From: Squalus acanthias
Taxonomy: Eukaryota
Assembly (NCBI GenBank): GCA_030390025.1
Contig: CM059431.1
Location: forward strand, 147,810,001 to 147,874,000
Direction: 5' to 3'
Length of the DNA: 64,000 bases
In this document: positions 2,833-29,365 of the stretch, piece after piece
How the letters are laid out: the number at the start of each line of letters is the position of its first letter
Numbering within the stretch: the stretch's first letter is position 1
Notes under the pieces: generated by a model
What the model saw: the letters and a program-made list of their open reading frames with translations, nothing else
Told to the model about the DNA's origin: nothing
Database searches by the model: none
Position numbers and translations under genes: made by a program

Positions 2833-3400
2833 CTTCCACTCCGGTTAGTGACCCACACTCAGTACAGTTCTACAATGACAGACACTTCCAGTAATACATG
2901 GCCACAGGTTCAGGTGTTCCACTCCGGTTAGTGACCCACACTGAGTACAGTTCTACAATGATAGACACTCCCAGTAATACATGGCCACTGGGGTCAGGTG
3001 TTCCACTCCTGTTAATGACCCAAACTCAGTACAGTTCTACAGAGACAGATAATCCCAGTAATACCTGGACACGGGGGTCAGGTGTTCCACTCCGGTTAGT
3101 GACCCACACTCAGTACAGTTCTACAGTGACAGATAATCCCAGTAATACATGGCCACAGGGTCAGGTGCTCCACTCCGGTTAGTGAACCACACTCAGTACA
3201 ATTCTACAGTGACAGTAAATCCCAGTAATACCTGGACACGGGGGTCAGGTGTTCCACTCCGGTTAGTGACCCACACTCAGTACAGTTCTACAGTGACAGA
3301 TAATCCCAGTAATACATGGACACGGGGGTCAGGTGTTCCACTCCGGATAGTGACTCACAATTCGAACAATTATACAGTGAATGATAATCCCAGTAATACC
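2833..3400. repeat. Minisatellite, about 84-bp unit, 6-7 copies, in the GPCR pseudogene intron
   Basis: Unit gggtcaggtgttccactccggttagtgacccacactcagtacagttctacagtgacagataatcccagtaatacatggccac; it produces the 28-aa periodic ORFs 2898-3182 and 3149-3520. Confidence 0.95.
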
Positions 3401-5019: not shown

Positions 5020-6055
5020 CACCCAGAAACGGGCTAACTGACTTAATCTAACTAAGATGAAAATAACTGGCCGACTGACCACTACCTGATCAAGTACCCA
5101 GAAACTGACCAACTGACCACATTCTGATCGAGCAACCAGAAACTGACCAACTGACCACATTCTGATCGAGCAACCAGAAACTGACCAACTGGCAACTTGA
5201 CAAATTACTCAGAAACTGATCAACTGACCACAATCTGACAGAAGACTCAGAAACTGAATAACTGACCAGAATCTAAACAAGCACCAAGAAACTGACCCAC
5301 TGACCAGAATCTAAGCAAGCAACAAGAAACTGGCCAACTGACCAAAAAATAAGCAAGCACCAAGAAACACACCAACTGACCAGAACATAAGCAAGCACCA
5401 AGAAACTGCCCAATTGACCACAACCTGCCGAGCACCCAAAATCTGACCAATTGACAAGTAACTGACCACACACTCATAAACTGAAAATTGACATATCCCT
5501 ACCGAGCTCAATGAAATGATCAACTGGCCACAACATGACCGAACACCAAGTCCCTCAACAAATGACCACTGCCTCAACGAGTAGTCTGAAACTGACCAAT
5601 TGACCAGAACCTGGCTGAGCAATCAGAAAGTGATCAACTGACCAAAACATGACCGAGCTCAAAAAACTGATCAACTGACCACAATCTGATCGAGCAACCA
5701 GAAACTGATCAACTCTACACAGTCTGATCGAGCAACCAGAAACTGATCAACTGACCACAGTCTGATCGAGCAACCAGAAATTGATCACCTGACCACAGTC
5801 TGATCGAGCAACCAGAAACTGATCAACTGACCACAATCTGTTCGAGCAACCTGAAAATGACCAACTGACCCCAATTTGATCGAGCAACCAGAAACTGATC
5901 AACTGACCACAATTTGATCAAATACTCAGAAACTGACTAATGAACACGACATGACCAAAAATTCTCCAACTAACCACGAGCAACGTGGCCCTTGGAAACT
6001 TCCCTGTATACAACAATCTGACTGAGCACATGGAAATTGACCATCAGACCACAAA
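5020..6055. repeat. Minisatellite, about 38-bp unit
   Basis: Unit gaaactgatcaactgaccacaatctgatcgagcaacca, with variable divergence. Confidence 0.9.
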
Positions 6056-10699: not shown

Positions 10700-13600
10700 C
10701 AGCGGCAAACTGCCATTGGTTAATGCAGTTTATATTATAAACGTTGGACTCGTTTGAAATGATTGGCAACATTTAAAAAGCACTGTTTCTGAATTCGGTT
10801 ACTGCAAGTCCGAGACCTGCTGTTGTGATTGGTTCCTCCACCACCCCCTTGACAGGCAAGAATTAATTTGGAATAAAAGACGATTTATCTCTGTGGGCAG
10901 CAAGATATTAACTTCCGGCCGGGCTGATCCAGTGGATTCTTGCAGAGGCTGAGAGGAGGTAACAGCCCTTAGGGATGGTCAAAGGCTGAGCTCATTCTAA
11001 AATCACCCTCAGGGACAGTGAGAATGACAAGGCGGATCAGCGAGCCAAAACGTTATAGATTGCCCTCAAAATGTGGGAACCACCCGTAGCCTTGCAGGGC
11101 CAGATGATTAATATTAAAGTCAAACAGCCCCTTCCAAACTTGCAGTGGTGCAGAATGAGTTCCCTTGAATTAAATCAGTCCATGCGGCCATCAAAGGAGA
11201 GTCCTCATGGCCCAAAGATTCCTGTAACAGAAAGGACAATGTTATCGTCCAGGCTGACTTGTTATTTGATCTGGGTAGATGGGTGTTCCCAGAGTTACTT
11301 CTAATGAGTTGGTCCGAGGGGTGAGAGCCTGGTCCAAAGGCAAGTCCAGCAGGTGCGGTGGGCCAGTAATGATCAGACCCTGAATGCCATTATTGCCGAC
11401 TGCCTCACCTATGCCTATTATGACCCGGGCACAGAGTTAAAACACCCTCCAGCCATGTCCCAGCATCCATGGCCCGTGAGGGAATTTGCAGACTTCTAAA
11501 ATTGGCCGCTTGCAAAGGACTCAGAAGGGTGACCAGTAAAACGTGGTTATAATTGATGTTAATCTAAATAGGTTAGTTGTAATTATCAGTAATTGACCTT
11601 ATCTGCAGACATCGTCAGATATCACATGTCACAGTGTGGTGACGATTTGTACTAAAGGCTTTGCCTGTCAGAGGCTGGGCCTCAACTCAGTCCAGATCAT
11701 CTGTTAACACCCCAATCAGATTGGGAGTTACACCCAAAAGTAATTCGAAGCACTTTAGTCTCTAATGTAAAACCACCAAGCCGGGCCAACATTTGTCTCT
11801 GAAAGTGTAACTGATAAGATAACTGGAAATGAATTGCTGCTTCAAGCACTCGAGAAGGGAAAATTTAACTGCACTTTAAGAGAATAATTAAATTTTCATG
11901 ACAAGAATGGAGAGAAGGGCAATCCAGGTGGTTCCTGCCCACTGCCGGGTATCAATAAAGCAAGATTTAGGGAAATAAAGTTTAGCATTGCGAGGGCTGT
12001 CTGTCTATCAATACTGCTCCTCGGATTTGGGATGATTGTGATCTGATAAAATGGAGTCAGGCAAAATATTTTGTGAATGAAAGTTGCTCCAATGTAAAGA
12101 CACACATTGTGTTAATAACTTGGACTAGGTGGGAAGGTGTTTTCTATCTTTAACATTATATTTGACAGTAAATACCCTGCAGGGGGCATGGACGTAATTA
12201 CATGTTAATTAACCTTTAAAATTGAATGAGAGGAAGTGGTTGAGATTATAAGATAGAAACAGGCACATTACACTCCCAATTGGGAAACTTTCTGAAATCA
12301 TTCTCTTACGTGATTTGGAATAGATCTTCTGGGCACAATTCACCGAACGATATCAAGGAAGCAACAATGCACATTCTAATAAAAGTCAGGCAAGTGTAGG
12401 TGATAATAGTTAATTTATAGATTTTTCTTGGAGATGTTTGTGTGCTTGCATTTAATGAACAAGAGGAAAACCGCATTTGAAATCCTGGCCACTAACGGAG
12501 TCATCGAGACTCTGCAGGAGAAGCTGAGCAAAGCTCTTCAGACACCCTCCACGATCTGTTGATAAGCTCCCTTGAAAGCCCAACAATGACTTGTATCGGA
12601 TGTCACGTGCGCATGATATTACGATACTGGTGAGTGTGTGCAAATATGAGGCATCTAGCATGCGGAAATATATGGTGCAGATGCACTGAAGACGTGTCTC
12701 AGACATGCTTAGTTACTTGACAAGAGTACGACAGAAAATGGTTAATGTAGTTCAGGAGAGTGAGAAAATTTTTGATCAAAGCACCGACACTTACTCCACA
12801 GAGAAACCAAACTGTTTATGAAAGAGGAAAGAGCTAAACAAACTGGAACCTGGCAGATGGATTGAAATTAAAATACACATTGAATTAGAATTTGGAGTTC
12901 TAATGTTCAGGTTTGGTTTCCTTTGCGTTGACAATGAAATTGGGACAAGTGAGGGCTCGGGAGAAATAATACTGAGCAAGGATTATAATTGTCAACATGA
13001 TAAAAAACGTTTAAAAGGAGAGCCATAGATTCTCTTAAGTCCATGATTTCTTGGTAATATGGTACACTGGTAACTTCTTTATATTGTATTATGCTTTTCT
13101 TTGCTTGTATCTGATGTATAGTACTGTTCAGATAAAACTTGGCCTAGCTCTGAGTGCTTATGTAAATGTGATATTAATCGACTGTAAACTCCAAGGTAAT
13201 TCAAGGTGAAGTCAGAAAGAATGAAAATGAACGAATGTCAGTAGACCCGGAGTGGATTCTCCCAGGGTCAGAAGGAGGGAATGGTAAAGTGTTAAAAAAT
13301 GGTTCATAAGGTCAACGAATTCCTGTGGGCTTTTCTATAGTATTTTAATCAGTGAGCGAATCTGGAAGAAAGGGGAAATGTATAAACAAGTTAAAAATGG
13401 GACACAAAAGACAGAAAATGATAAACACCCAGGTCAACTGGCGGCCCATATGGAGTATGTGGGCGGTTGCTCGGAACCCACATCCCACAGTAAGAGATAG
13501 TACAGACAGGGAATTTTAAACACACAGGTCAAGAGGCGGCCCATATCGAGCTAAGGGGGCCGTTGCAAAGAAACCACATCCCACACTAACAGATAGTACA

Positions 13601-13960
13601 GACAGTGAATTATAAAGACCCAGATCAAGAGGCGGTCCATATCGAGCTAAGAGGGCGGTTGCTAGGATCCCACATCCCACAGTAATTGATAGTACAAGAC
13701 AGTTAGAATATTGGAAGCTGCACGGCCACTTGGCCGAGGCATTAAACAAAGCTTGTAGAACAGAGCTGAAGGCCCAAATATTAGAAGCCGGGTGAACACC
13801 TCAGTAAGTGGCCTCAGCCAACGGGCATAATGTTGTGTGTAGGTGCAGCCTAAGGTAGCCGAATAGTACAATAATGGGTCCTTTTCTCTCTTAACTACAG
13901 GGTAATGGCGGGATAGATAGAAATCCATCCAAGAAAGGTTACAGCTCAGAGCAGTTTGAC
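10700..13960 (+). mobile_element. Heavily decayed retrovirus-like LTR element: RNase H, integrase, env-like remnant, PPT, 3' LTR
   Basis: Hand translation gives WNKRRFISVGSKIL and VKG*AHS...ENDKADQRAK (retroviral-type RNase H), and CLTYAYYDPG..GP*GNLQTSKIGRL..KGDQ*NVVIIDV (integrase). A purine tract at 13364-13378 is followed by TG and direct repeats. Confidence 0.65.
13420..13712. repeat. Three ~95-bp direct repeats at the start of the putative LTR (U3-like)
   Basis: ac(c/a)caggtcaagaggcggcccatatcgagctaag...cacatcccacagtaa..gatagtacagacag starting at about 13427, 13522 and 13618. Confidence 0.9.
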
Positions 13961-14745: not shown

Positions 14746-16804
14746 AAGAAAAGTAGGACAATTGCATGAAGCGAAAAATGTTAATAGTCCATTTATAGTG
14801 AAGCTTGTTTTTTAAAAATCACTCGATGCTGAAACTGAGCGCAGGTTATTTTTGCAGAACGAACAACCCTTTGTTGTGACCATAACCACGTGGACTCTGT
14901 TATTTTGAGGAGTGATTCGAAGTAGGAGTGCCCATTATCAATTATAAATGATAAGTTAGTAAGAACTTAATTGTTATTTCTCTTTAAATAATTTTTGATA
15001 AGAGTACTTAAGCAGTTTAAGTGAAGGGGAAATGTTAAATATTTGGGATTCTGTTGGTTTAAGAAGAGTAAAACAAGGTTACGCTGCAGGAGGAGTAAAT
15101 TGGTAGAGCAGGCAGTGGAAACCAGTTTTCTAATCAATCAGCAGTGGTGACTCATTTGGTTTTAAACAAACAAACAGTATAAAAAGACCAGTGCTAGTGC
15201 GAGTCAGCAGAGAGTGCTGAGTTTGGGTAAATTTGAGTTCGGGTGAGTGGAGTGTGGGGTGCTCTTTTAATACTTTAATTCTGTGGGTTGTAGTTAATAA
15301 GGCCTTTCTGGTACAGAGTGACTGTTGGTAAACCATTTAACTGGTGTGATTTAGAGGGATGATTTGATTTAAATCCAATTAATTAGAGGGGATACTTGCA
15401 TCTATAATCGGGCAGAGAGTGTCCATAACTAACAATAAAAAATGTAATTAATTACATAGAATGGAGCAGGTGATGTGTTACTGTTGCGAGATGTGGGAGC
15501 CGGTGGACCCCATTGAGGCTCACGGTGATTACATCTGAGACAAGTGTCTGCTGCTACAGGAATTCCAGCTCCGTGTTGATGAGCTGGAGTCTGAGCTTCA
15601 GACACTGCGACACATCAGGGAGGGGGTAAAGTACCTGGACTCTGTATTTCAGGAGGTGGTCACACCTATGAAGTGAATTAATTCAGATGTAGCCCATGGT
15701 CAGGGACAGGACGGTGTGACGACGAGTGAGACAGGTACGGGGATCCAGGAGGTAGTGTTGGAGGAGCCGTAGCACTTGCTCTTTGCAACAGGGTCGAGGT
15801 TATTATTCCATATGGGGACAGGAGCATGGACTGCAGGGAGGATGAGCAACCTGGCCACAGCACCGTGGAACGGGGGGCCATTCAAGAGGGGGAAGTAAAT
15901 AGAAATGTTGTAGTGGTAGGGGATAGTATTATTAGGGGGATAGATAGAGTTCTCTGCAGCCGAGAGCGAGAGTCCCGTAGGCTGTGTTGCCTGCGCCGTG
16001 CCAGGGTTAAGGACATCTCCTCTGGGCTGGAAAGAAACTTGCGATGGGAGGGGGTGGATCCAGTTGTCGTGGTCCATGTTGGTGCAAACGACGTAGATAG
16101 GACATGGAAGCCAGTTCTGTTAAAGGAGTACGAGCAGCTAGGGGTCAAATTAAAAAACAGAACCTCAAGGGTATTAATCTCTGGATTATTACCTGAGCCA
16201 CGAGCGAATTTTTCTAGGACAAATAAAATTAGAGAGTTAAATGAGTGGCTCAAAGACTGGTGTGGGAGAAATGGGTTTTGCTTCCTGGGACACTGGCACC
16301 AGTACTGGGGCAGGAGGTAGCTGTTCCGTTGGGACGGGCTTCATTGGCCAGTGCTGGGACTTGAGTCCTGGCGGATCATATAACTAGGGCTGTAGAGAGG
16401 GCTTTAAACTAACCAGTGGCGGGGAGGTTCCTAGAGAGCAAATAAAAAAGAGAACAGAGAATGTCAGAGACTTAGGTAGCAGTGGGGAAATTAAAAACCA
16501 GAGTGTGTCAGGAAGGGGCAGAAGGTATGCAGTAAAAGGTAAAGTAATAAAAAGTGCAAAAGCGGGAACTAAGTGTCACAAAACATATTTGAAAGTTCTA
16601 TACCTGAATGCACGTAGCATCATAACAAAATAGACGAGTTAATGGCACAAATAACTACATATGGGTATGATCTTGTGGCCATTACAGAAACATGGCTGCA
16701 GGGTGACAATGCCTGGGAATTAAAATACCAGGTTATTTAACGATCAGGAAGAACAGGCAGGAAGGAAGGGGACGTGGAGTGGCTATGTTAATAAAGGAAA
16801 CAAT

Positions 16805-17545
16805 GGCCCAAAAATTAGTGCCGCTACGCGAGAGTACGCACTGCGTACTCTCGCGTATTCTGTCTCCAATTGCCGGTTTTCCGCATGCACTGCGCATGCG
16901 CTGAAAACCGGCACTTGGTGAATGGAAAAGGGGGCGGGTCCTAAGTGAACCGCATGCGCGCTACAGGCTGCGCGCATGCAGTGCACTTAGTGGTTTCAAC
17001 GCGCAGGTAAGTACGGAAGATTCTACACATAAAAAAAGGAGGAGTAAGACCCACTTTTAACAAGGTAAGTAGAGAATTAAGTATTATTTTGAATTTTTTT
17101 TAACAGGTATATCTTTTTTAGAGACTTTAAAGACAGGTAAGTTTATTTTTATAACTTTTTAAAAGATTTTAAATGTTTTCAAAAATGTAATTTTTTATTT
17201 AAAATGGTTAATTTATTTAACTATACTTATTTTATTAATGTGATGGATTTTTAAAATTTAATTGAGGTTTAGCGGTTCTTTTGGGGGGCTATAGTATTCA
17301 TAGCTTTCACAGCACTTATGTGAAAGTTATGAATGGAAGATGGTGTGCTGCCATTGGCTCTAACTGAGTCACGTGATCCCACAGCACGCACGAATTAACT
17401 ACGCCTGCGGGATACGCAAGCCCAGCGCAGCAGCTGTCCAGAACATCAAGTTCGTGCGAGCTGGAACTGAAAAAGCCAACACGCAGTGAGAGATCGCGGG
17501 GAGGCCTTACCCTCGCATGAAGGCTTCCTCACGAATTTTTGGGCC
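16805..17545. mobile_element. Non-autonomous TIR element (MITE, PIF/Harbinger-like), copy 1
   Basis: TIR GGCCCAAAAATT/AATTTTTGGGCC, 3-bp TSD AAT, 741 bp. Removing it restores the CR1 frame LIKETITLIQRND. Confidence 0.9.
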
Positions 17546-19865
17546 AATCACTTTAATACAGAGAAATGATATTGGGTCAAAGGTCAGGATAATGAAACAG
17601 TTTGGGTGGAGATAAGGAATAATAAGGGGAAAAAACATTAGTGGGCGTAGTCTATAGGCCTCCAAACAGTTGCAACTCTGTTGGACGGAGTATCAATAAG
17701 GAAATAGTTGAGGCTTGTAGTAAGGGAACATCTATAATTATGGGGGATTTTAACTATCATATTATATGGACAAATCAAATTGGCAGGGCTGCCTTGAGGA
17801 TGAGTTCATTGAGTGTATCAGGGATGTGTTTCTTGAGCAGTATGTAACTGAACCGACCAGGGGGCAAGCAACCTTAGATCTGGTCCTGTGAAACGAGACA
17901 GGATGAATTAAAAAAATTCTAGTAAAGGATCCCCTTGGAATGAGTGACCATAACATGGTTGAATTCCATATTCAATTAGAAGGTGAGAAGGTTGGATCTC
18001 AAACAAACGTGCTAAGCTTGAATAAAGGAGACTTTGAAGGTATGCGACCGGAATTGAGTAGAGTGGATTGGGAAAATAGATTAAAGGGTAAAACGATACA
18101 TGATCAGTGGTGTACATATAAGGAGTTATTTTACAACTTCCAAAAAATATATATTCAACTGAGAAGAAAAGGGTGTAAAAGAAAAGACAGTCATCCGTGG
18201 CTAAGTAAAGAAATTAAGTATAGTATTCGACTAAAAACAAGGGCTTATAAGGTAGCCAAATCTAGTGGGAGAATAGAGGTTTGGGAAAACTTTAAAAGAC
18301 AGCAAAAAATAACAAAAAGATTGATTAAGAAAGGGAAGATAGATTATGAAAGTAAATTAGCAAAGAAATATAAAAACAGATTGTAAGAGTTTTTATAGTT
18401 CTATAAAAAGAAAAAGGGTGGCTAAAGTAAATGTTGGTCCCTTAGAGGATGAGACCGGGAAATTAACGGTGGGAAATATGGAGATGGCAAATACACTTAA
18501 TGAATATTTTGTATCAGTCTTTACAGTAGAGGACACTAAGAATATCCCAACACTGGAAAAACAGGGGGCTATAGGGGGGAGGAGCTAAACACGATCAAAA
18601 TCACTAAGGAAGTTGTACTCGGTAAAATAATGGGACTCAAGGCGATTAAATCACCTGGACCTGATGCCCTACATCCTAGGGTCTTGAGCGAAGTGGCGGT
18701 AGGGTTTGTGGATGCATTGGTAATCATTTTCCAAAACGCCCTGGACTCAGCTAAGATCCCGGCAGACTGGAAAACTGCTAATGTAACACCCTCATTTAAA
18801 ATGGCAGTAGACAGAAGGCTGGAAACTATAGACAGGTTAGCCTAACATCTGTGGTAGGTAAAATTTTGGAGTCCATTATTAAGGAGACATTTGGATAATC
18901 ATAATTTAATAGGACAAAGTCAGCATGGTTTTATGAAGGGGAAATCATGTTTGACAAATTTGATGGAGTTCCTTGAGGAAGTAACATACAGGGTGGATAA
19001 AGGGGAATTAGTGGATGTGGTGTATTTAGACTTCCAAAAGGCATCTGACAAGGTTCCATACAAAAAAATATTGCTTAATATAAAAAATCACGGGATTAGG
19101 GATACTATTCTGGCATGGATAGAGGATTGGCTATCTAACAGAAGGCAGAGAGTTGGGATAAACGGTTCATTCTCAGACTGGCAATCAGTAACTACTGGTG
19201 TTCTGCAGGGGTCAGTGCTGGGTCCCCAACTCTTTACAATCTATATTAACGATTTGGAGGAGGGGACCGAGTGTAACATATCAAAGTTTGCAGATGATAC
19301 TAAGATGGGAGGGAAAGTAGTGAGTGAGGAGGACATAAAAAATCTGCAAGGGGACATGGACAGGCTAAGTAAGTGGGCAGAGATTTGGCAGATGGAATAC
19401 AATACTGGAAAGTGTGAGGTTATACACTTTGGCAGGAAAAATAGTAGAGCAAGTTTTTATCTAAATAGCAAGAAACTGGAAAGTACTGAAGTACAAAGGG
19501 ATCTGGAGGTCCTGGTGCGCGAAACTCAAAAGGTTAGTTTGCAGGTGCAGCAAGTGATTAAGAAGGCCAATGAGTTGTTAGCTTTCATTGCTAAGGGGAT
19601 AGAATATAAAAATAGGGAGGTATTGCTTCAGTTGTACAAGGTATTGGTGAGACCGCACCTGGAATACTGCATACAATTTTGGTGTCCATACTTAAGAAAA
19701 GACATATTTGCTCTCGAGTCAGTACAAAGAAGGTTCACTCGGTTAATCCCGGGGATGAGGGGATGGACATATGAGGAGAGGTTGGGTACATTGGGACTCT
19801 ACTCATTGGAGTTCAGAAGAATGAGAGGCGATCTTATTGAAACATATAAGATTGTGAAGGGGTTA

Positions 19866-20222
19866 ACATAGAAACATAGAAAAATAGAAAATAGGTACAG
19901 GAGTAGACCATTCGGTCCTTCGAGCCTGCACCGCCATTCAATGCGTTCATGGCTGAACATGCTACCTCAGTACCCCATTCCTGCTTTCTCGCCATACCCC
20001 TTGATCCCCTTAGTTGTGAGTGTTATATCTAACTCCCTTTTGAATATATTTAGCGAACTGGCCTCAACAACCTTCTGTGGAAGAGAATTCCATAGATTCA
20101 CCACTCTCTGGGTGAAGAAGTTCCTCCTCAGCTCAGTCCTAAATGGATTCCCCTTAATCCTTAGACTGTGACCCCTAGTTCTAGTTTTCCCTACCATTGG
20201 GAACATTCTGCCCGCATCTAAT
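19866..20222 (-). mobile_element. Inverted CR1 3' fragment nested in the CR1
   Basis: Minus-strand RMFPMVGKTRTRGHSLRIKG..FFTQRVVNLWNSLP with a (tttctatg)n tail. Confidence 0.88.
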
Positions 20223-20724
20223 TTGTTGGATCGGGTGGATGTGGGGAGGATGTTCCCGATGATGTGTGAAACTAGAACTCGGGGGCAAAGTCTTAGAATA
20301 ATGGGCTGCTCTTTCAAAACTGAGATGAGAAGGAACTACTTCACTCAGAAGGTGATAGGTCCATGGAATATGCTGCCCCCAAAAGCTGTAGAAGCTACAT
20401 CATTTCATAAATTTAAAACAGAAATAGACAGTTTCCTAGAAGTAAAGGGAATTAAGGTTTACGTGGAGCCGGCAGGAATTTGGACATGAGTCTAGTTTGG
20501 GATCGGTCATGGCCCTGTGGGTAGCGTAGCGGGCCCAGGGGCCGTGTAGCCTGATCCTGCTCCTATTTCGTGTGTCCAATTCTGTTAGGTTCAGGAGATG
20601 GTTCTGTGATAGTAGATTGGCGGTTAGGATCAGATCAGCCATGATCTTATTGAATGGCGGAGCAGGCTCGAGTGGCCAATTGGCCTACTCCTGCTCCTAT
20701 TTCTTATATTCTTATGTTCTTATG

Positions 20725-21566
20725 CATAGGCGCCACCTGGTGATGCCCATCATGGTCCAATATCCGAGTTCGGACTCCCAAAAACCCATGTGTCGGCCCC
20801 GGAGTGTGTTTGGGAGACAACCCGGGTTTCTTCTTCTTCTTCCCGCGATTGTGTTTTATTTGCGGTGGGGGGGGGGGGGGGGGGAGGGGGGGGAGTTTAT
20901 GACGGGCTTTCACTTTGAATTCTCTGGTATCTGTGGTTCCGTTTCCACAATCCGATACATGATCAGTAACACACATTTCATGGCCCAGCCCTCCCTCCTT
21001 TTCACCTAGCATCCATTGATAAGGGGGATCATTTTCTGCACCGGTCACACACGCAGGAGAAAGGCTGCAAACTAGGAATTCGGACCCAAAATTGACCCAA
21101 TTCTTGAGTGGGCCTGGTCGAGGCTTGACACATCCATATTTACCCTCATGCTCCTGCCACCACCGTGGCCAACACAACATGGTTTCCCCATGGCCTTCCC
21201 ATTGAATTGGGCTCCCATTATATCCCCAAGGATCTCCTATCTGGCGGTAACTAGTATTGTCACCTACCGTTGCCTGAATGAACCATACACGCGGCTGATT
21301 CACAGTCCCACTCTTACACTTTATACATAATCGCCTCCCTTCTTGAACCGTGTAGGAGGTTACCCGGACTATTCCTGAACAACTTTTGTCACATGTACCC
21401 TTGATAGATCGGAGAGTGACCTCCCGAGCGATACCTTGGGGCGGAGTTACGCGGCAATGGTAATCTGACTGTCGTAACTTGAATCGCTGGATGCTTCCAC
21501 ATGAGTTGCTGCTGCCCTTTCGAGATGGAGCGCTATGTCACACAGCAACCTAAATATCCTCCCCAT
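20725..21566 (-). pseudogene. env-position ORF: putative signal peptide plus immunoglobulin-like domains, truncated at a CR1 tail
   Basis: Acceptor ctctccgctttgttcccctcttccacAG at 21587-21586, then gaaATGG at 21566 (MGRIFRLLCDIALHLERAAA). After a frame change, the frame is open from 21537 and contains DYHCRV, TVQEGRRLCIKC..RVWF..EHEGKYGC and VNFGSEFLVC..PPYQW..DCGNG; sequons NTS and NGT. Confidence 0.6.
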
Positions 21567-21670
21567 TTCTCTGCCTTGTTCTGGCCTGTGGAAGAGGGGA
21601 ACAAAGCGGAGAGTTACTCGCAGTCCCGCCTCCCTTCTTCCCACCATTGGTCTTTTAGGCTCTGCACTGA

Positions 21671-24600
21671 CTATTCACTGGACCGCCTTGGCCGTTTCCC
21701 AGGTCCTTGCCTTAGATTGTAACCAACATCCTGTTCATGGGGAGGCACCTTGTCACACGGAGGTTCCTCAGGTGGGGTCGCCGCATTAGGCACCCCTTCT
21801 CCATCATCCCATTGGAGCGGCTGAGTCAGTCTCACCATGCTCATGATCGCAGCTTGCTGTCTTCTTGACCTACTTGTGGGCTGAAAATATTTCATCTGGT
21901 TAATGTGAAACAATTAGGGTTTCTGAGGTAACTGAAACGCGTATACCAGAGGACAAGCTTTGTCAACAATGTTATACGGTCCCTTATAGAGGGGTTCGAA
22001 CACTCCCACCCTCGCATAGTTTCGTAACATTACCTGGCTCGCTACTTCCCACTCCTGCGGTTTACTCGGAGCCAGGTGTAATCTGTTGCGTTGGTTTGTC
22101 TTTCCAATGTTATGGGCGGCTCTCAAGTTCAGTTCTTTCAAAGTTCCCCACAGGTCGCTCAGGAATTTGTCCCGAGTGACTTCATTCATTTGTTTATCAG
22201 TCAGAGTGGGAGCCAACAGGTGTGTGGGGGTTCGCATGGGTCTCCCTGTTACCAACTTATGAGGGGAGTGACCCGCTCCTTTGGATTTGTTACTGTGGAT
22301 CCCCATAAGGATTAGGGGAAGTATCTCATCCCACTTAGTGGGCTGTTTGTTTAATTCCTTTCGCAGGGCCAACTTCAACGTACGGTTCATTCTTTCCACA
22401 ATCCCTGATGACTGCGGTTTGGGGGTTACGTGTCATTTCCCTTCAATTCCAAACAACTTCAGGGTGGCTTGCATCACTTGACCTGTAAAATGACTCCCTT
22501 GGTCTGCACGGGAAAGCTTCGACCCACTTGGTAAAATTGTCCACTAGGACTAGACAATATTTATTACCCTTTCTTAATGGTGGGCAGAGGTCTGATAAAA
22601 TCTATCTGGACACACTGCCCCGGTCCCTCTGGTCGACGGGGGTGCCCGAGGGGAGCCTTTCTTTTATGTGGGTGAGGATTGTTAGCAGCACACACTAAAC
22701 AGGTTTTACAGTAATCTTCTATGTCTTTCCTCAGATGAGGCGACCACCCTACATCCTCGACCCGCTTCCAGGTTGTTTCTGTTCCGGGGTGTCCAGCCCC
22801 CGGTCCCCCGTGAGCGAGTTGCATGTATTCCTCCCTGTATCCCTCGGGCACAATCCACTTCTCTCCTTTGAACAACATACCTTCCCTGGCATTTACATCT
22901 TTGGCCCCATAAGGCGCTTCTACAATCTGACCTGCTTCTCTTTCCTTGAGGACAGCTTTTAGCACTACATCTGTCAGCTGTGTTATTTTGATATCCGGGG
23001 GAAGCGGAACAGTAACAGCCAGAGTGATGGCTGCTCCCACTCCCGATTGATACGGGTCCCACGGGACCCCTCTCTCCGCTCCCACCTCAGCAAGCTCGTC
23101 TGCTTTCCTATTTCCCTCCCACCTGGGTTCTGCATTAGAGTGGGCTTTGACCTTATGCATATAGTATTCCTCGCCTCCACTTCTTATGACTTCCGCTATG
23201 GTTGCCAGCATTGGCGCGGTAACCAGTGGCTTGCCATCTGCTGATTTAAAACCTCTTCTAGCCCAAAACGCCAACTATTCTGTGCAAGAATTACATGTAA
23301 ACATAGAGTCAGAGCAGATCGTATAGGGCGGGGGGAAATCGGTGGGATGTGTTACCACATAAGTTCCGGCTGCTAACTCTGCCTGCTGAGCTCTGAGAGT
23401 TGTGGGTAACTTACTCGCCACTTCCATTCCTTTCTGCGGGTCGTAAATTACACATCCTGTTTTACGTTGACCCCTTTCCATAAAACTAGACCCATCCAAA
23501 TATCTCTCTCTCCCTTCAGGGTGGATATCAGGTTTGAATCCGCCTTCTGTTTCCCACACCCCCTCGACTGTACAAGTGTGCGGTTCACCCATATATATAA
23601 GACTGGGTGCTAATTTCAGATCGTTTAACGGTTTCACTTTCAGGTTCATCCCTTCTAACTGTAGGGTCCATGTAGCTACTCGAGTGCTTGACACTGTTCC
23701 TTGCCTAATTCGGCCTTGTAACAGGAGGCGGGTTGGCGTGTGGTGGGTGAAGAGAGTGATGGGCTCGGTCCCCGGGAATAGGCAAAATGCTTCACTGCCC
23801 AGGATGTGGCCAGCAAGTGCCGCTCACAGGTAGAGTATCCCTTCTCCAGCTCAGTTAGCACTTTGGAGACATGAGCAACTGGTCTCAGGCTACCATTCAC
23901 TTCCTGCATTAAAACAGAACTCAGACTGGCGTCTGTTTCCGCTACTTCCAAAAAGAAGTCCTTCTTAGCATCTACGGCCCCCAATGCTGGGGCTGTTTGT
24001 AGATCCTTTTTCAACTTTACAAAAGCTTCCTCACAGTGCTCATCCCAATCCCATTCCACTCCCTTTCTGAGTAATCTCAGCAAAGGAGCTACCATCGCTG
24101 CGTAATTCTCAATAAATTCTCTACAGTACCCTGTTAGATCCAGGAATGATCTGAGAGCAGCTATTGAACCCGGGCGCTGCAATTCCTGGACAGTTTGGCG
24201 CTTTGCTCCGTCTATCGCGCGCTCCCCTGGTAACATAGTCAGTGTAAGAAACTGAAACTCTCTTTGCCCTACCGGTGCCTTCACGTGCTTTACCTTAAAA
24301 CCTACGGCTGCAAGCGATTCTAACAATTCCTGCAGCAGTTGCTCATGTTCCTCTTCGCTATCTGAGAACAGCAGGAAATCATCTGCACCCTGCACAAGCT
24401 GGCCTGGCTGACTGAATTCTGATAGACTGTTAGCCATACACTGATGGACAATAGACGGGCTATTGTGGAATCCCTGTGGCAAACAAGTCCACGCATACTG
24501 CTGACCTTTAAAGGTAAAAGCAAATTTATACTGGTCCTCCGGGTGTGAGGGAATTGACCAGAATCCTTTAGATATGTCCAATACTGGGAACACAGGGACA

Positions 24601-25450
24601 GAGCTGGGAATGTTGCCGATTAAATCAATCACAGCTGCTCCTGTGGGACCACAAGCAGGGATGGTTTTATTCAAGATTCTGTAATCTACAGTCATCCGCC
24701 AGGAATTGTCTGGCTTCATTACTGGCCAATCAGGAGAGTTAACATGCGTCACAATAGGTCTCAGGACCACGTGTTCTACTAAGGACGCAACAGCTTTTTC
24801 TCAGTCTCTCTCTCTGCTTCCTTGGGGAACCTACACTGTTTCTGGGGCGGGGACATTGGCTCACGCCCACACCCAACTCTACTCCTGTCACCCTTCCACA
24901 ATCATGTCTGTGGGTAGCACAAGCTCACTTGACATTCAGCACTGCGGTTTGATACCTCTCGGTCACCCTGGCCGTTAGTGTTTCTGAGTCATCGGGTGCC
25001 GCAGGTGTTACCACCCACGCTTCTCCATGTCTCGGGGGTATAACGATTACTTCTTCACCACAGTCCACTACGCCCCACAAACAGTTATTATCCATATCCA
25101 CTGCCACATTGTGAGACAACATCCAGTCAGAGCCCAGCTCTCCCATTCCTGGCTGATCACATTTCATTAGGAAACATCTCCACTTTGTCTGTAGGGGTCC
25201 GTCTGTGAAGATTAAAGTATTTGAGACCGCCCCAGCCGCTGAGTTACCCGTGAAACCTCCTAAAACACAGGGGAGGCGGGCACTTGACCAGGGAGACGAC
25301 ATCGGGGAGGGAGAGTGGATCTACCCTGCTTGACGCTCCAGTGTCTACCAGATAGTCCCCTCTCTCGCCCTCAATCAGAATGTCTACACACGGCCTTCCC
25401 CAATCACCGTACCTGATTGGGCACAGGTACTCGGGCTGGGCGCGGCCCCG
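21671..25450 (-). pseudogene. pol: pro-pol of the LTR element (protease, RT, RNase H-derived tether, RNase H, integrase)
   Basis: ORF pieces 24925-25302, 23676-24770, 23275-23694, 22564-23274, 21914-22399 and 21671-21913. The RT YxDD motif reads GADD; the integrase core has a deletion between WVEAFP and DQGSHF. Confidence 0.9.
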
Positions 25451-27843
25451 TCATGTTCGGGTCTTCCCGCGATCCTCCCCATGGGCCGCGTGGACCTTTC
25501 CTTGAGATGGTTCAAGCTCCTTCATCTGCTTAGCTACATATCGAATGAAATCCCCATAACTGGGGGCGCTGGGCTGAGATTCTGCCTCTCGTGGGGCCGC
25601 CTCAACCATTTCTTTCTCAGATGATCTTTTACAGTTCCGGGCATAGTGTCCCAACACCCCACAGGCAGAGCACTTCTTTCCCTGACTCCACTCATGCAAC
25701 CACTTCCGAGGTGCCCCCCGCCCTTCATTTCACAGACCTTGCCTTTTGACTTGCTTATTACCCCGGAGTTCTTTTTATCTAACTGGCGCGCCTGGAAACG
25801 CAGGCTCATTTTCCGCAACACCCTGATCTCAGTATTGGTGATATCTTCTGGGTCAAAGTACGCCATTGCGGCTTGTAAATAGGGCACACTGTAGGAGATC
25901 AGTGTGCAACCAATGGTTCCCCGCTTCTCCGTCGAGGTCTGCTCTCCTTACCACCCCTCCCATGGCTGCATTATAGGTCGGCCATAACCTGTCAGCAAAA
26001 GCTGCCAGGTGTTCGTTTGGGCCTTGATCCACGTCCGCCACGGCCTTAAAAGAAACCCTTTACCCTGTCACAACAACTGGGCAACCCTCAACTTTAGCGC
26101 ACCGTCAGTGCCCTCTCTCCTCTTATTCTCTGGTGGAAGTCCAGCAAAGACACTGGAGCTCAGAGTAAATAGCAGCAAGCGCTTCTTTTCCTCCTTAACC
26201 AGGTCATTTAAAGCGGCCTTCTGCACCAGTCGCTGAAGGTAAGCATGCAGGTACAGCAGGCGGTTAAGATGGCAAATGGTATGTTGGCCTTCATAGCGAG
26301 AGGATTCGAGTACAGGAGCAAGGATGTTTTGCTGCAGTTGTCCAAGGCCTTGGTGAGACCACACCTTTAGTATTGTGTGCAGTTTTGGTCGCCTTATCTG
26401 AGGAAGGATGTTGTTGCCATGGAGAGAGTGCAGCGAAGATTTACCAGACTGATACCTGGGACGGCAGGAATGACGTATGAAGATAGATTTGGTCGATTAG
26501 GCTTATATTCGCTAGAGTTTAGAAGAATGAGAGGGGATCTCATTGAAACTTATAAAACTCCAACAGGACTAGACAGACTAGATGCAGGAAGGATGTTCCC
26601 GATGGCAGGGTTGTCCAGAACCAGGGGTCACAGTCTAAGGATAAGGGGTAAGCCATTTAGGACTGAGATGAGGAGGAATTTCTTCACCCAGAGAGTGTTG
26701 AACCTGTGGAATTCTCTACCACAGAAGGCATTTGAGGCCAATTCATTAAATATATTCAAGAAGGAGATAGATATATTTCTTAAGGCGAAAGGGATCAAGG
26801 AATATGGTGAGAAAGCAGGGACAGGGTACTGAATTTGGATGATCAGCCATGATCTCATTAAATGGCGGAGCAGTCTCGAGGGGCCGAATGGCCAACTCCT
26901 GCTCCTATCTTCTATGCTTCTATGCTTCTATGCTTCTACTTCCAGATAATACCCTTGGGGGCCCCCTCCCATTGCCAGCTTGTTCATATCACTGGACATT
27001 TTCCTTAACTCCTCAGTATTATACGGGACCACAAACTCCCTCTCTAGCGCCCCCAGCGCTCCTTCACCCGCACCCACGGCCGGAGCCTGGTACCGTTTTT
27101 GACACATCGGGGCCATAGGTGGGGGACTGAATCCCTCCGGTGGGCTATTTCCAGTTTGTGAGCCCGTCGGCGGGTGATTTTTATCAACCCCTTTGGTATC
27201 CTGCAGATCTCCTCCAACCACAGGAGTCATGGCACACACAATACCCCTCTGGACCTTCAACTTTTCCCGCAGCTCCCTAATCAATTCCTTCCATTCAGTG
27301 TCATCCCCGGCAGCACTCCGGTCCTCCAGAGCCTGTCTCTGAGTGAACCTGAATGCAGCCTTCAAATCGTCATCAGCTTTCTCTGCTCGTTCTTACCGAT
27401 CTCTCTGGTTGGCCGCCTCCTCTGAACAAACATCTCACTGATTCTGATTATTTACACACCGGCTCTCAAGGTACTGCCCTTTGTTACACCACCTCTCCTT
27501 TACCTTTTTAAGCTGTCCCTAAGCCTTTTCTTACTTTCTCTTTCACCCTCTAATTCCAGTCGAACCCGGTTTACAACCGCTTCCCTATCACTGACATCCT
27601 TTACCATCTCTTCCATCTCCTTATGCATCTGAGCCATTTTACACACATCATTCTTAAACTGCCTCTGGTCTGCCATTGACCAGACGGCCGTTACCATCCC
27701 TGGCCGGCAGGTGGACCCTTGGTCCACTGTTCAGCCTCAGCCACTGGGTCAGCAACCTCAATAATGCCCCGTACCCACCCCTTCCTGAGGGGTAACTTCG
27801 CTCTCACATATTTCCTGACTAACTCATACATTGTTTTTGCCAT
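25451..27843 (-). pseudogene. gag: gag of the LTR element, interrupted by a CR1
   Basis: MAKTMYELVRKY start, coiled-coil segments, MHR-like motif, CCHC knuckle, PSAP, and TGA at 25453-25451. Confidence 0.85.
26225..26937 (+). mobile_element. 5'-truncated CR1 inserted in gag
   Basis: ORF 26377-26832 is the CR1 RT C-terminus; (tatgcttc)n tail; gag sequence continues on both sides. Confidence 0.92.
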
Positions 27844-27859
27844 TGTTTTTTCCGAGCGA

Positions 27860-27877
27860 GTCCCTGTTCGGGCGCCA
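27860..27877 (-). promoter_or_regulatory. Primer binding site for tRNA-Lys(UUU) (Lys3)
   Basis: Minus strand TGGCGCCCGAACAGGGAC, an 18/18 match to the tRNA-Lys3 primer site, 5 nt after the ...CTTACA LTR end. Confidence 0.95.
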
Positions 27878-27882
27878 GAATC

Positions 27883-28554
27883 TGTAAGATGTTCTGATTG
27901 TCTGAGAGTTTATAGAGTTCAGACTCGGGGAACAGACAACACAAAACACAATGAATCTGTGAAACTTCTTTTACTTAAAAATCAACAAGAGGTTACAAGT
28001 AATTCCCAGAATACAAACTCTACTCAATTCATGAATTTATCACAAGCAAACATCTAAAATCATTGACTTTAAGCTCAGGTGATTATAAGTAAAACCACAT
28101 ACATACTATTCACCAGATGAGAGGTCAATTCAATATGACAGACGTATGACTAACTGTAACTGGCACCTGACCACGTCACCATCGACTATAGTCCCGGATC
28201 TCAGTGTCCAATAACACTTATAACCCAAAACTGGGCAACTGGCCCCCAGCATTTATGTCCCAAACTGTGGGGAATGTTGTTTTCCTCTCCCTCTCTCTCC
28301 CTCTCTCTATCTGTTTTAAGGCTCAGTTCACCAAGGCCAGACTCCAAGGGCTGGAGACAGTCATTGTTTTTCACATCTGCAGGGCTGTTAAGGTTCTCAC
28401 AGAATTTTCAAGATCTTATCTTCCGAAGGAAAAGTACCAGCACATTAGAAGTCTTGCAAATGTTTTTAGCCAATCAGTCTCTTGCCCTCAAATCTTGTCG
28501 GTACATTTGGTCAATTTTAGATTCAGTCAAATGGAGATTCAGTCAAGTTTACCA
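27883..28554 (-). repeat. Putative 5' LTR (about 670 bp); outer boundary approximate
   Basis: Ends in CA just before the PBS; candidate TG start (tggtaaac) at 28554; CATAAA and AGTAAA as TATA-like and polyA-like signals. There is no second LTR to confirm it. Confidence 0.6.
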
Positions 28555-29365
28555 GGACAGTTCTCTTTTGGGCCTCAACTATTCACTGCTTTTGTTAACG
28601 ACTTTATTGATAGGATTGAGAGCCACATATCCAAGTTTGATGATGACACAATGATAGGCGGCATTTAAACAGTTTAGATGGAACCACGAAATTAGAAGAG
28701 ATATTAATAGATTAAGTGAATGGGCAAAACTATGGCAAATTGATTTAAATATAAGCAAGTGTGAGGTCATCCACTTCGGATTTAAAATGGAGAGATCAAA
28801 TTACTTTCTAAATGGTGAATAGCTGGAACCAATGGATGTCCAAAGAGACTTATGGGTCCATGCACATATATCATTAAATTGTCATGGACAGGTACAGAAA
28901 ATATCAAAAGGGCTAATTGAATGGTGGTATTTATATCTATAGGAGTACAATATAAGGGGGAGAAGTTATGCTACACCTATACAAAACACTGGTTAGACCA
29001 GACCTGGAGTACTCTGTTCATTTCTGTGCATCACATCTTAGGAAGGAAGTATTAGCCTGAAAGAGTGAAGCGTAGATTTACCAGAATGATACATAGAGCC
29101 CAAGGGTTAAATTATGAGGAGAGATTACACAAACGAAGGTTGTTTTCTCTGGAATTTAGAAGCATAAGGGGTGATTTCATTGAAGTATTCATAATATTAA
29201 GTGGAACCGATAGATAAGATAGAGAGAAGATATTTTCGATGATTCACAAGTCTAGGACTAGGTGACTTAGCCTTAATATTAGATCCAAGCCTTTCCGGAG
29301 TGAAGTTAGGAAACACTTCTACATGTAATGGGTGCTAGAAATCTGTAACTCACCCCCACAAACAG
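28555..29365 (+). mobile_element. Decayed CR1 3' fragment
   Basis: GPQLFT..ISKFDDDT and a degenerate RT C-terminus. Confidence 0.8.

Follow-up and report, generated by a model that had tools for sequence, protein, structure and literature searches.

Which gene stands between the end of the integrase and the broken-off 3′ end of a retrovirus-like element in the genome of Squalus acanthias, and is it built from immunoglobulin (Ig)-like domains? The interval and the provirus that holds it lie on the minus strand of the window, by which we mean the whole stretch of 64,000 nt analysed here (contig CM059431.1, positions 147,810,001 to 147,874,000); positions below are those of the window unless a locus is named. 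A first-pass annotation had placed in this interval a spliced env-position gene with one partial and two fuller Ig-like domains, and had offered two alternatives for its role, a captured Ig-type attachment module ahead of a fusion protein or an immune-modulating accessory gene. We found that the interval is the 5′ third of an env gene, that is, its N-terminal part with a signal-peptide-like start and a cysteine-rich head. We further suggest that this head, receptor-binding and with an Ig-like middle segment, precedes a cleaved fusion subunit of the F type and is expressed from a spliced mRNA, a joint reading that we hold to be moderately probable.

Reading the minus strand past the integrase stop, a TAG at 21673-21671, a splice-acceptor-like signal (21586..21618) is made up of AGTAAC at 21618-21613, a pyrimidine-rich run at 21612-21589 and CAG at 21588-21586, with its AG at 21587-21586. 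The ATG at 21566-21564 stands 19 nt downstream of where the exon would start, in a context of A at −3 and G at +4, and its frame encodes MGRIFRLLCDIALHLERAAA... before it meets a stop after 39 codons. A second frame, open from 21537 to 20704 (277 aa), holds three segments and then a linker rich in proline and lysine. Counting residues from the VTPPQ codons, segment 1 (21367..21450) comprises residues 1-28 with two conserved cysteines; segment 2 (21115..21366) comprises residues 29-112, contains EGRRLCIKC, VWF and EGKYGC in that order, and is the candidate Ig-like domain; and segment 3 (20905..21114), residues 113-182, is the hypervariable part of the head. The linker, which includes a run of C, shares 20726..20904 with the initial ~30 residues of a conserved region leading up to a furin-type site. 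In all of these positions, from the AGTAAC to the proline/charged linker, the first-pass annotation agreed with the sequence as we read it.

The acceptor and the start codon that it had named were also conserved among copies. AGTAAC was present in all 20 aligned copies of the window's subfamily (19 exact, one with TTAC), and so were the pyrimidine tract, the AG and the ATG. Among 69 family loci examined, 42 match the 5′ stretch of env, and the ATG is kept in 36 of these 42; the pyrimidine run ending in AG-G is kept in every one of the 39 family loci whose match covers the acceptor. Env would be translated from a spliced mRNA joined at this site. Contigs of three sequencing runs labelled with the same species, whose nature is uncertain (“RNA?” being a guess), were aligned to the provirus, and no joint linking a leader to 21586 was found in them. 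Over 20726-28600 the same contigs reached a depth of 32-93 at the long terminal repeat (LTR), 6-13 at the env head and about zero over most of gag and pol. Two of them (1409 and 1123 nt) lose their match to the window at exactly 21526, yet extend more than 660 nt further; they could stem from a lineage that has diverged, or join DNA that lies beyond this stretch.

The env start, with its signal-peptide-like stretch and a short N-terminal stretch (21451..21566), carries a one-base frame break throughout the window's subfamily. The distance from the ATG to the VTPPQ codons is 116 nt in the window, as in each of the 19 other copies of this subfamily (subfamily 1), as against 117 nt, which is in frame, in 12 loci of other lineages (read off the aligned strings) and 129 nt, likewise in frame, in L043. 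This is the single frame change that had been proposed. A clean ATG and one continuous frame were seen in six of the 12 loci with 117 nt (L024, L031, L035, L039, L040 and L045). In the in-frame lineages (L024, L030, L031, L035 and others) the start runs directly into the head domain, and L030:467-1339 is a frame of 291 aa with no stop within the match. The start consists of M-G-R, about 12 hydrophobic residues and then a stretch of small residues, and it is kept in lineages whose DNA identity is only 72-76%; its signal-peptide-like stretch is the strongest 19-residue hydropathy window of L030:467-1339 (mean 1.02). The N-terminal start fits a predicted signal peptide, as the first-pass annotation had supposed.

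Homology of the window to other copies stops at 20726-20728, where a repeat cuts env (20440..20725, no strand assigned). This repeat is the tail of a long interspersed element (LINE) or a short interspersed element (SINE)-like sequence; its part 20633-20725 recurs at 26841-26933 (82% identity), and 20440-20722 matches 5486-5768 of locus L021, outside the env of that locus, at 96% identity. The frame of the window ends early because this repeat replaces the element at 20725, and neither the later env parts nor a 3′ LTR was found within the window. In eight other copies the shared sequence continues for at least 1.5 kb beyond 20725, and the frame of other copies extends about 600 residues past the head and linker. 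Three single open frames, L024:759-1778 (340 aa), L046:703-1767 (355 aa) and L048:101-1159 (353 aa), run from segments 2 and 3 through the proline linker, a conserved region of about 130 residues and R-x-R-R to a hydrophobic stretch rich in Gly, Ala and Thr. The gene holds the position of env, and the head precedes a fusion protein as a module of the attachment type, the first of the two alternatives that had been offered.

The full order of env was tiled from the open frames of several copies and from simple sequence scans. After the head and linker come the conserved region, R-x-R-R, the hydrophobic stretch, a long heptad region, a core of about 200 residues in which cysteines are conserved, another heptad region, a strong membrane anchor and, last, a short basic/acidic tail. 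The furin-type site could be aligned in 14 rows, with R-x-R-R in 10 and four other forms (RRRL, RRRQ, RTRW and RMRQ), and RKRR directly precedes GLIND.... Heptad windows numbered 13 after the furin-type site compared with 1.2 in shuffles, and 3 compared with 0.34 before the anchor; the mean hydropathy of the membrane-anchor window was 2.71. The env of L024 measures 2,454 nt from ATG to stop, or about 818 codons, and is interrupted by at least three frame breaks. The furin site, fusion-peptide-like stretch, heptad regions and anchor, which the earlier reading had proposed to look for in other copies, do follow, and together they give the order of elements of a class I protein of the F type: signal peptide, outer part, furin site, fusion peptide, heptad region, large core, heptad region and transmembrane segment. 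With its large core between the heptad regions, the predicted layout resembles the F proteins of paramyxoviruses and baculoviruses and not a canonical retroviral transmembrane subunit, and no C-x6-CC motif was found in the four env pieces scanned. In a protein language-model search the clusters closest to the fusion core were those of Baculo_F (0.95; 206 of 256 features shared; 20 of 30 matches in that set), with Fusion_gly at 0.79, and we treat this outcome as a lead, not proof. Cleavage at the furin-type site would separate a fusion subunit of class I and F type from an outer subunit made up of head, linker and conserved region.

To describe the head, conservation was counted over 47 family rows thinned to at most 80% identity, and only rows covering each column were counted. 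In segment 1, C20 is kept in 20 of 30 rows and C24 in 22 of 25; in segment 2, C45 is kept in 27 of 35, W56 in 27 of 36 and C107 in 27 of 29. The amino acid identity of segment 3 to other lineages was 28-44% in 10 of 11 pairs and 74% in one (L045), compared with 42-76% for residues 1-112 in the same 11 pairs, and DNA homology between the two best-sampled subfamilies is lost over about 250 nt at segment 3. Despite this variability, C128, W146, C160 and C168 of segment 3 are kept. Within the linker (20830-20904), the poly-C run and a purine run (20866-20897) allow two reading frames among copies; the resulting versions are lysine-rich or glutamate-rich, the frames rejoin at PKHTPGP, and changes of homopolymer length seem to be tolerated or compensated. 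The gammaretroviral surface subunit (SU) likewise combines a conserved scaffold with a module that changes fast and a hinge rich in proline, and from this likeness we infer that the head, about 180 residues long and cysteine-rich, is probably the receptor-binding part of env. The hypervariable segment 3 would set receptor specificity, like the variable regions of gammaretroviral SU, and the conserved middle segment would form an Ig-like β-sandwich scaffold.

The Ig assignment was examined with several kinds of comparison. A B-strand Cys, a C-strand Trp and an F-strand (D)xGxYxC motif occur together in segment 2 only, as C45, W56 and EGKYGC107. An Ig-type pattern drawn from an alignment of host domains is found once, at 21130-21339, among all 127,996 residues of the window translated in six frames. 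The best weak Pfam match of the window domain, after a noise match, was Ig_3 (E 0.19; 12.7 bits against a cut-off of 30), in which residues 32-108 align to profile positions 10-75 of 78. As a reference we used a profile (A2) of 20 I-set exons of the same genome, two of which come from a dense I-set array in a titin-like gene (G000:C3:20.0-20.4 Mb) and 18 from elsewhere. In hhalign comparison with this profile, segment 2 scored 21.06 (E 0.0017, probability 15%); column shuffles gave 10.4 ± 2.2, with none of 150 reaching 21.06, and the reversed profile gave 10.4. In this colinear alignment EGRRLCIKC coincides with the B strand, VWF with the Trp of strand C and EGKYGC with the DxGxYxC of strand F. 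When the head was searched with the language model, V-set/I-set clusters came back at 0.91, behind two unnamed clusters, a result taken as a lead only. Segments 1 and 3 gave no Ig signal against the host I-set profile (E 0.33 and 0.18). These results make one Ig-like domain in the head, segment 2, plausible at about even chances, and three such domains are not supported. What is left of the partial and two fuller domains first described is thus a sub-threshold signal for segment 2, and the profile and structure check proposed at that time returned weak matches for this segment, none at threshold, and no confident fold.

A number of results weigh against our reading, and those that concern the head point to the rival explanation that has survived best, namely that the head is a real env domain with a novel cysteine-rich fold, and that the Ig-like motifs of segment 2 arose by chance in a sequence rich in Cys, Trp and Gly. 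No Pfam Ig family reached its cut-off. Only four of 106 family rows matched Ig_3 (best E 0.084, none reaching threshold) and the other 102 had no such match at E up to 10, while Lep_receptor_Ig and Ig_C17orf99 were matched below threshold by one row of 106 each. The probabilities calibrated by hhalign were only 5-15%, that for segment 2 being the 15% given above, and column shuffling is a lenient control. The Ig-type pattern was picked after the sequence had been seen, and in 20000 shuffles of the domain itself its loose form appeared 65 times and its strict form twice. AlphaFold2 models of the head showed short strands only and were of low confidence, with a predicted local distance difference test score (pLDDT) of 37.6 from the single sequence and 36.1 with a 106-row alignment, with which the prediction did not converge. 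The head also has extra conserved cysteines, C42 and C93, and a WPRWW motif; extra cysteines and a motif of this type are untypical of Ig domains. Chance resemblance is harder to reconcile with a match to host I-set domains that is colinear across the motifs of strands B, C and F and beats all 150 column shuffles and the reversed profile, with an Ig_3 alignment that covers nearly the whole profile, with the V-set/I-set clusters returned by an independent language-model search, or with a Cys-Trp-Cys triplet kept across the diverged rows as counted above. A novel fold is, in our judgement, possible but on the doubtful side.

Further results that count against the proposed reading concern env as a whole. 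Curated env families gave no matches to sets of five and seven env pieces at E up to 1 and 10. PF00523 matched none of 12 env pieces, nor any place in a genome-wide search whose stricter first look may have missed weak matches. PF12259 had no match to the env pieces scanned; genome-wide it had 11 weak matches, and all three that were fetched belong to an unrelated gamma-type family of endogenous retroviruses (ERVs). Solved structures (PDB) yielded no match to a profile of the head or to one of the mid-env region, and PDB sequence searches with the 277-aa frame of the window and with L021:2061-2744 returned nothing related. No relatives were found outside this genome, in collections that hold few vertebrate repeats. 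Word-seeded searches with the head and the fusion core (“near” lengths) gave none at E ≤ 0.01, and a scan of IMG/VR with the mid-env alignment gave no match. A HMMER search with the 277-aa frame against 1.84 billion representatives returned three matches, all of them repeat-rich unrelated proteins, and a metagenome scan returned one match, on a high-GC bacterial contig, that was judged to be due to chance. Finally, in the window's subfamily an Asp lies inside the hydrophobic core of the signal-peptide-like stretch. Given this Asp and the shared frame break, that subfamily probably multiplied with its env already dead.

The second role that the first-pass annotation had offered was that of a separate secreted accessory or immune-modulating protein, outside env. 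The window by itself would agree with this, as its frame stops soon past the linker and the head has a signal-peptide-like start of its own. However, the end of the frame is caused by the repeat inserted at 20725, at least three other copies have one frame from the head through the furin-type site to the fusion-peptide-like stretch, and a conserved stop between the linker and the fusion part was seen in none of the copies examined; we dropped this alternative as very improbable. Least credible is the idea that the segment is unrelated host or flanking DNA, or a host Ig exon captured recently by the window copy alone, which has motif resemblance alone in its favour and is contradicted by the adjoining integrase end, which every one of the 20 aligned copies has, as do lineages with protein identity as low as 39%, by the 40 diverse loci fetched (L034-L073), each with at least one fragment matching the head domain, by a protein search that found only such places, and by host I-set exons that are at most distantly similar. 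The segment thus belongs to the element, as the env assignment supposes.

The env reading can be set against the wider family. When the genome was searched at the DNA level with 20726-21700, 54 matches were returned; besides the window itself, 24 of them span nearly all of the query, with identities of 87-93%. At the protein level, an intact relative of the head used as query found 140 matches with 39-100% identity (4815 first-look candidates, 134 of them scored). The ratio of nonsynonymous to synonymous substitution rates (dN/dS) over residues 1-112 of the head was 0.10-0.54 between the window and 11 diverged lineages, two further lineages being saturated and giving no value, and it was 0.73 inside the window's own subfamily. 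The matches and the ratios against the diverged lineages, together with the conserved acceptor signal and ATG, speak against a chance open frame. Within this multi-copy family of endogenous retroviruses, the window copy is dead and truncated. Its subfamily would have multiplied without a working env, via retrotransposition or complementation, and its spread despite a shared env defect fits env-independent amplification.

The rest of the provirus has the parts of a retrovirus in the wide sense of Retroviridae: LTR, tRNA primer site, gag CCHC knuckle, reverse transcriptase (RT), tether and RNase H, integrase and env. The 5′ LTR (27883..28560, minus strand, like all features of the element given here) begins TGTCC... 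and ends ...TTACA. It was placed at about 28560-27883 because the sequence that follows the env stop of copy L024 matches window 28561-27882; positions 3089-3282 and 3433-3838 of L024 match 28561-28359 and 28285-27882, respectively, at 88-89% identity. The window copy lacks the 3′ LTR and the last two thirds of env, which other copies have. A search for LTRs as direct repeats within 12000-34000 found only repeats of the LINE/SINE type, which fits the missing 3′ LTR. Five bases after the LTR lies a primer-binding site of 18 nt (27860..27877), complementary to the 3′ end of the host tRNA-Lys(UUU). The reverse complement of its 15-nt core was counted 420 times genome-wide, compared with 0 for a control, and at locus L100 this core is the 3′ end of a gene called tRNA-Lys(ttt) by ARAGORN. 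Genome-wide, the occurrences of this 15-mer mostly adjoin copies of the ERV family studied here. At G000:C29:11697240-11721402 the core recurs every ~1.78 kb, with a tRNA-Lys(UUU) gene in one unit, and this array looks like a tandem tRNA-Lys cluster.

Gag-pro-pol (21671..27844) is broken by stops and frameshifts, and a repeat of family D6 is inserted in gag at about 26371-26933. Pfam matches were obtained for zf-CCHC, the gag zinc knuckle (25451-25729); for RVT_1 together with RT_RNaseH_2, the degenerate RNase H-like “tether” (23676-24800); for a second, true RNase_H (23275-23823); and for Integrase_H2C2 (22564-23274). The best named relatives of the RT were UniRef entries from coelacanth (38-41% identity), then plant Ty3/gypsy elements (~31%), and no canonical retrovirus was among the 25 RT matches. 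The LTR of the family carries a tandem array whose length is very different between copies: in L021 (4205-5486) and L022 (4231-9001) repeated matches step by ~29 bp over more than 1 kb, in L024 (3260-3440) the array is short, and in the window there is almost none. Elsewhere in the window, three to four tandem copies of a unit of ~96 nt (families D4, D5 and D7) lie at 13409-13696, and immediately past the env breakpoint comes a LINE with a long RT frame (15730-20171, plus strand). Copies of one LINE-tail or SINE-like repeat are found both at that breakpoint (20440-20725) and within gag (26371-26933).

In full-text searches, which cover neither supplements nor subscription journals, we did not find a retroviral Env of the F type with an Ig-like or hypervariable N-terminal head. 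If real, an Ig-type head with a hypervariable module on an F-type fusogen would bear on how retroviruses acquired and rebuilt their entry proteins, and also on whether F-type fusogens can acquire receptor-binding heads. A more specific proposal, that the family represents an old and possibly lokiretrovirus-like lineage in which an Ig-superfamily domain, a fast-evolving specificity module and a proline hinge were set before an F-type fusion protein, we regard as speculative and unlikely in its entirety. Such a modular Env has not been described for any retrovirus in the searchable literature, and it would be a convergent invention, on another fusogen, of the gammaretroviral plan of receptor-binding domain, proline hinge and fusion machine. 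The case also bears on how ERVs are surveyed. Screens that need a recognisable Env miss whole lineages because some env genes match no profile, and a screen of shark ERVs acknowledges that this requirement misses lineages (PMC4422223). The family studied here is large and diverse, being present in hundreds of places, and its env falls in no curated family, yet the anatomy of that env is readable.

Compared with Ig domains of the I-set and Ig_3 types, segment 2 has G-x-x-L-x-I-x-C, a Trp 11 residues on and G-x-Y-x-C 62 residues past the first Cys. It differs from them in lying below every curated threshold and in its extra cysteines and Trp-rich stretch, so that the Ig fold is a candidate assignment. 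In gammaretroviral SU, as described in a review, an N-terminal receptor-binding domain, a proline-rich region and a C-terminal domain follow one another, the first having a β-strand core with receptor-facing variable regions before a poorly conserved proline-rich hinge (PMC9967133). The head studied here is alike in its conserved scaffold, variable module and proline-rich hinge (PMC9967133). A CXXC motif of the outer subunit likewise has a counterpart in C-I-K-C of segment 2 (PMC9967133), although these cysteines more likely form ordinary intradomain bonds than take the CXXC role. The likeness to Env of the gamma type does not extend to the fusion subunit, which has no C-x6-CC or immunosuppressive-domain motif and has a core of ~200 residues between its heptad regions. 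Loci L094, L095 and L096 belong to a different ERV family, unrelated to the env studied here, with gamma-type env frames open over 466-612 aa that carry C-x6-CC and an immunosuppressive-domain-like motif.

The ENV proteins of errantiviruses and baculoviruses, which are of the F type (Baculo_F), share with the present env a furin site, a hydrophobic fusion peptide, flanking helices and a large ectodomain, and in both a single protein must bind as well as fuse, according to a study which reports no vertebrate ERV homologous to the invertebrate elements (PMC13524379, bioRxiv 10.1101/2023.10.26.564294). The language-model search likewise placed our fusion core nearest to the clusters of this family. 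The env studied here differs in having no match to the corresponding hidden Markov model, in its vertebrate host and in a pol with the retroviral double RNase H.

A further parallel is offered by the lokiretroviruses. Their Env is reported to have a signal peptide, RXKR, a fusion peptide, a coiled coil and a transmembrane segment, to be similar to the F proteins of paramyxoviruses and pneumoviruses and not canonical, and to match PF00523 with E 2.2e-7 (Wang & Han, Mol Biol Evol 2020, PMC7947760). The words “shark” and “cartilaginous” are absent from the text of that paper, and a cysteine-rich, partly hypervariable head of ~180 residues with a proline linker is not mentioned in its passages on Env (PMC7947760). 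The studied env pieces also differ in giving no match to PF00523, which lokiretrovirus Env does match (PMC7947760). On the other hand, both are retrovirus-type proviruses with tether and RNase H, both have an Env of F-like layout (PMC7947760), and the RT of the studied family is nearest to named proteins from coelacanth and of Ty3/gypsy-like type, not to canonical retroviruses. The double RNase H, the affinity of the RT and the env layout together point to the lokiretrovirus-like part of the retroviral tree (PMC7947760, PMC9040795), and on these features the studied family is possibly lokiretrovirus-like.

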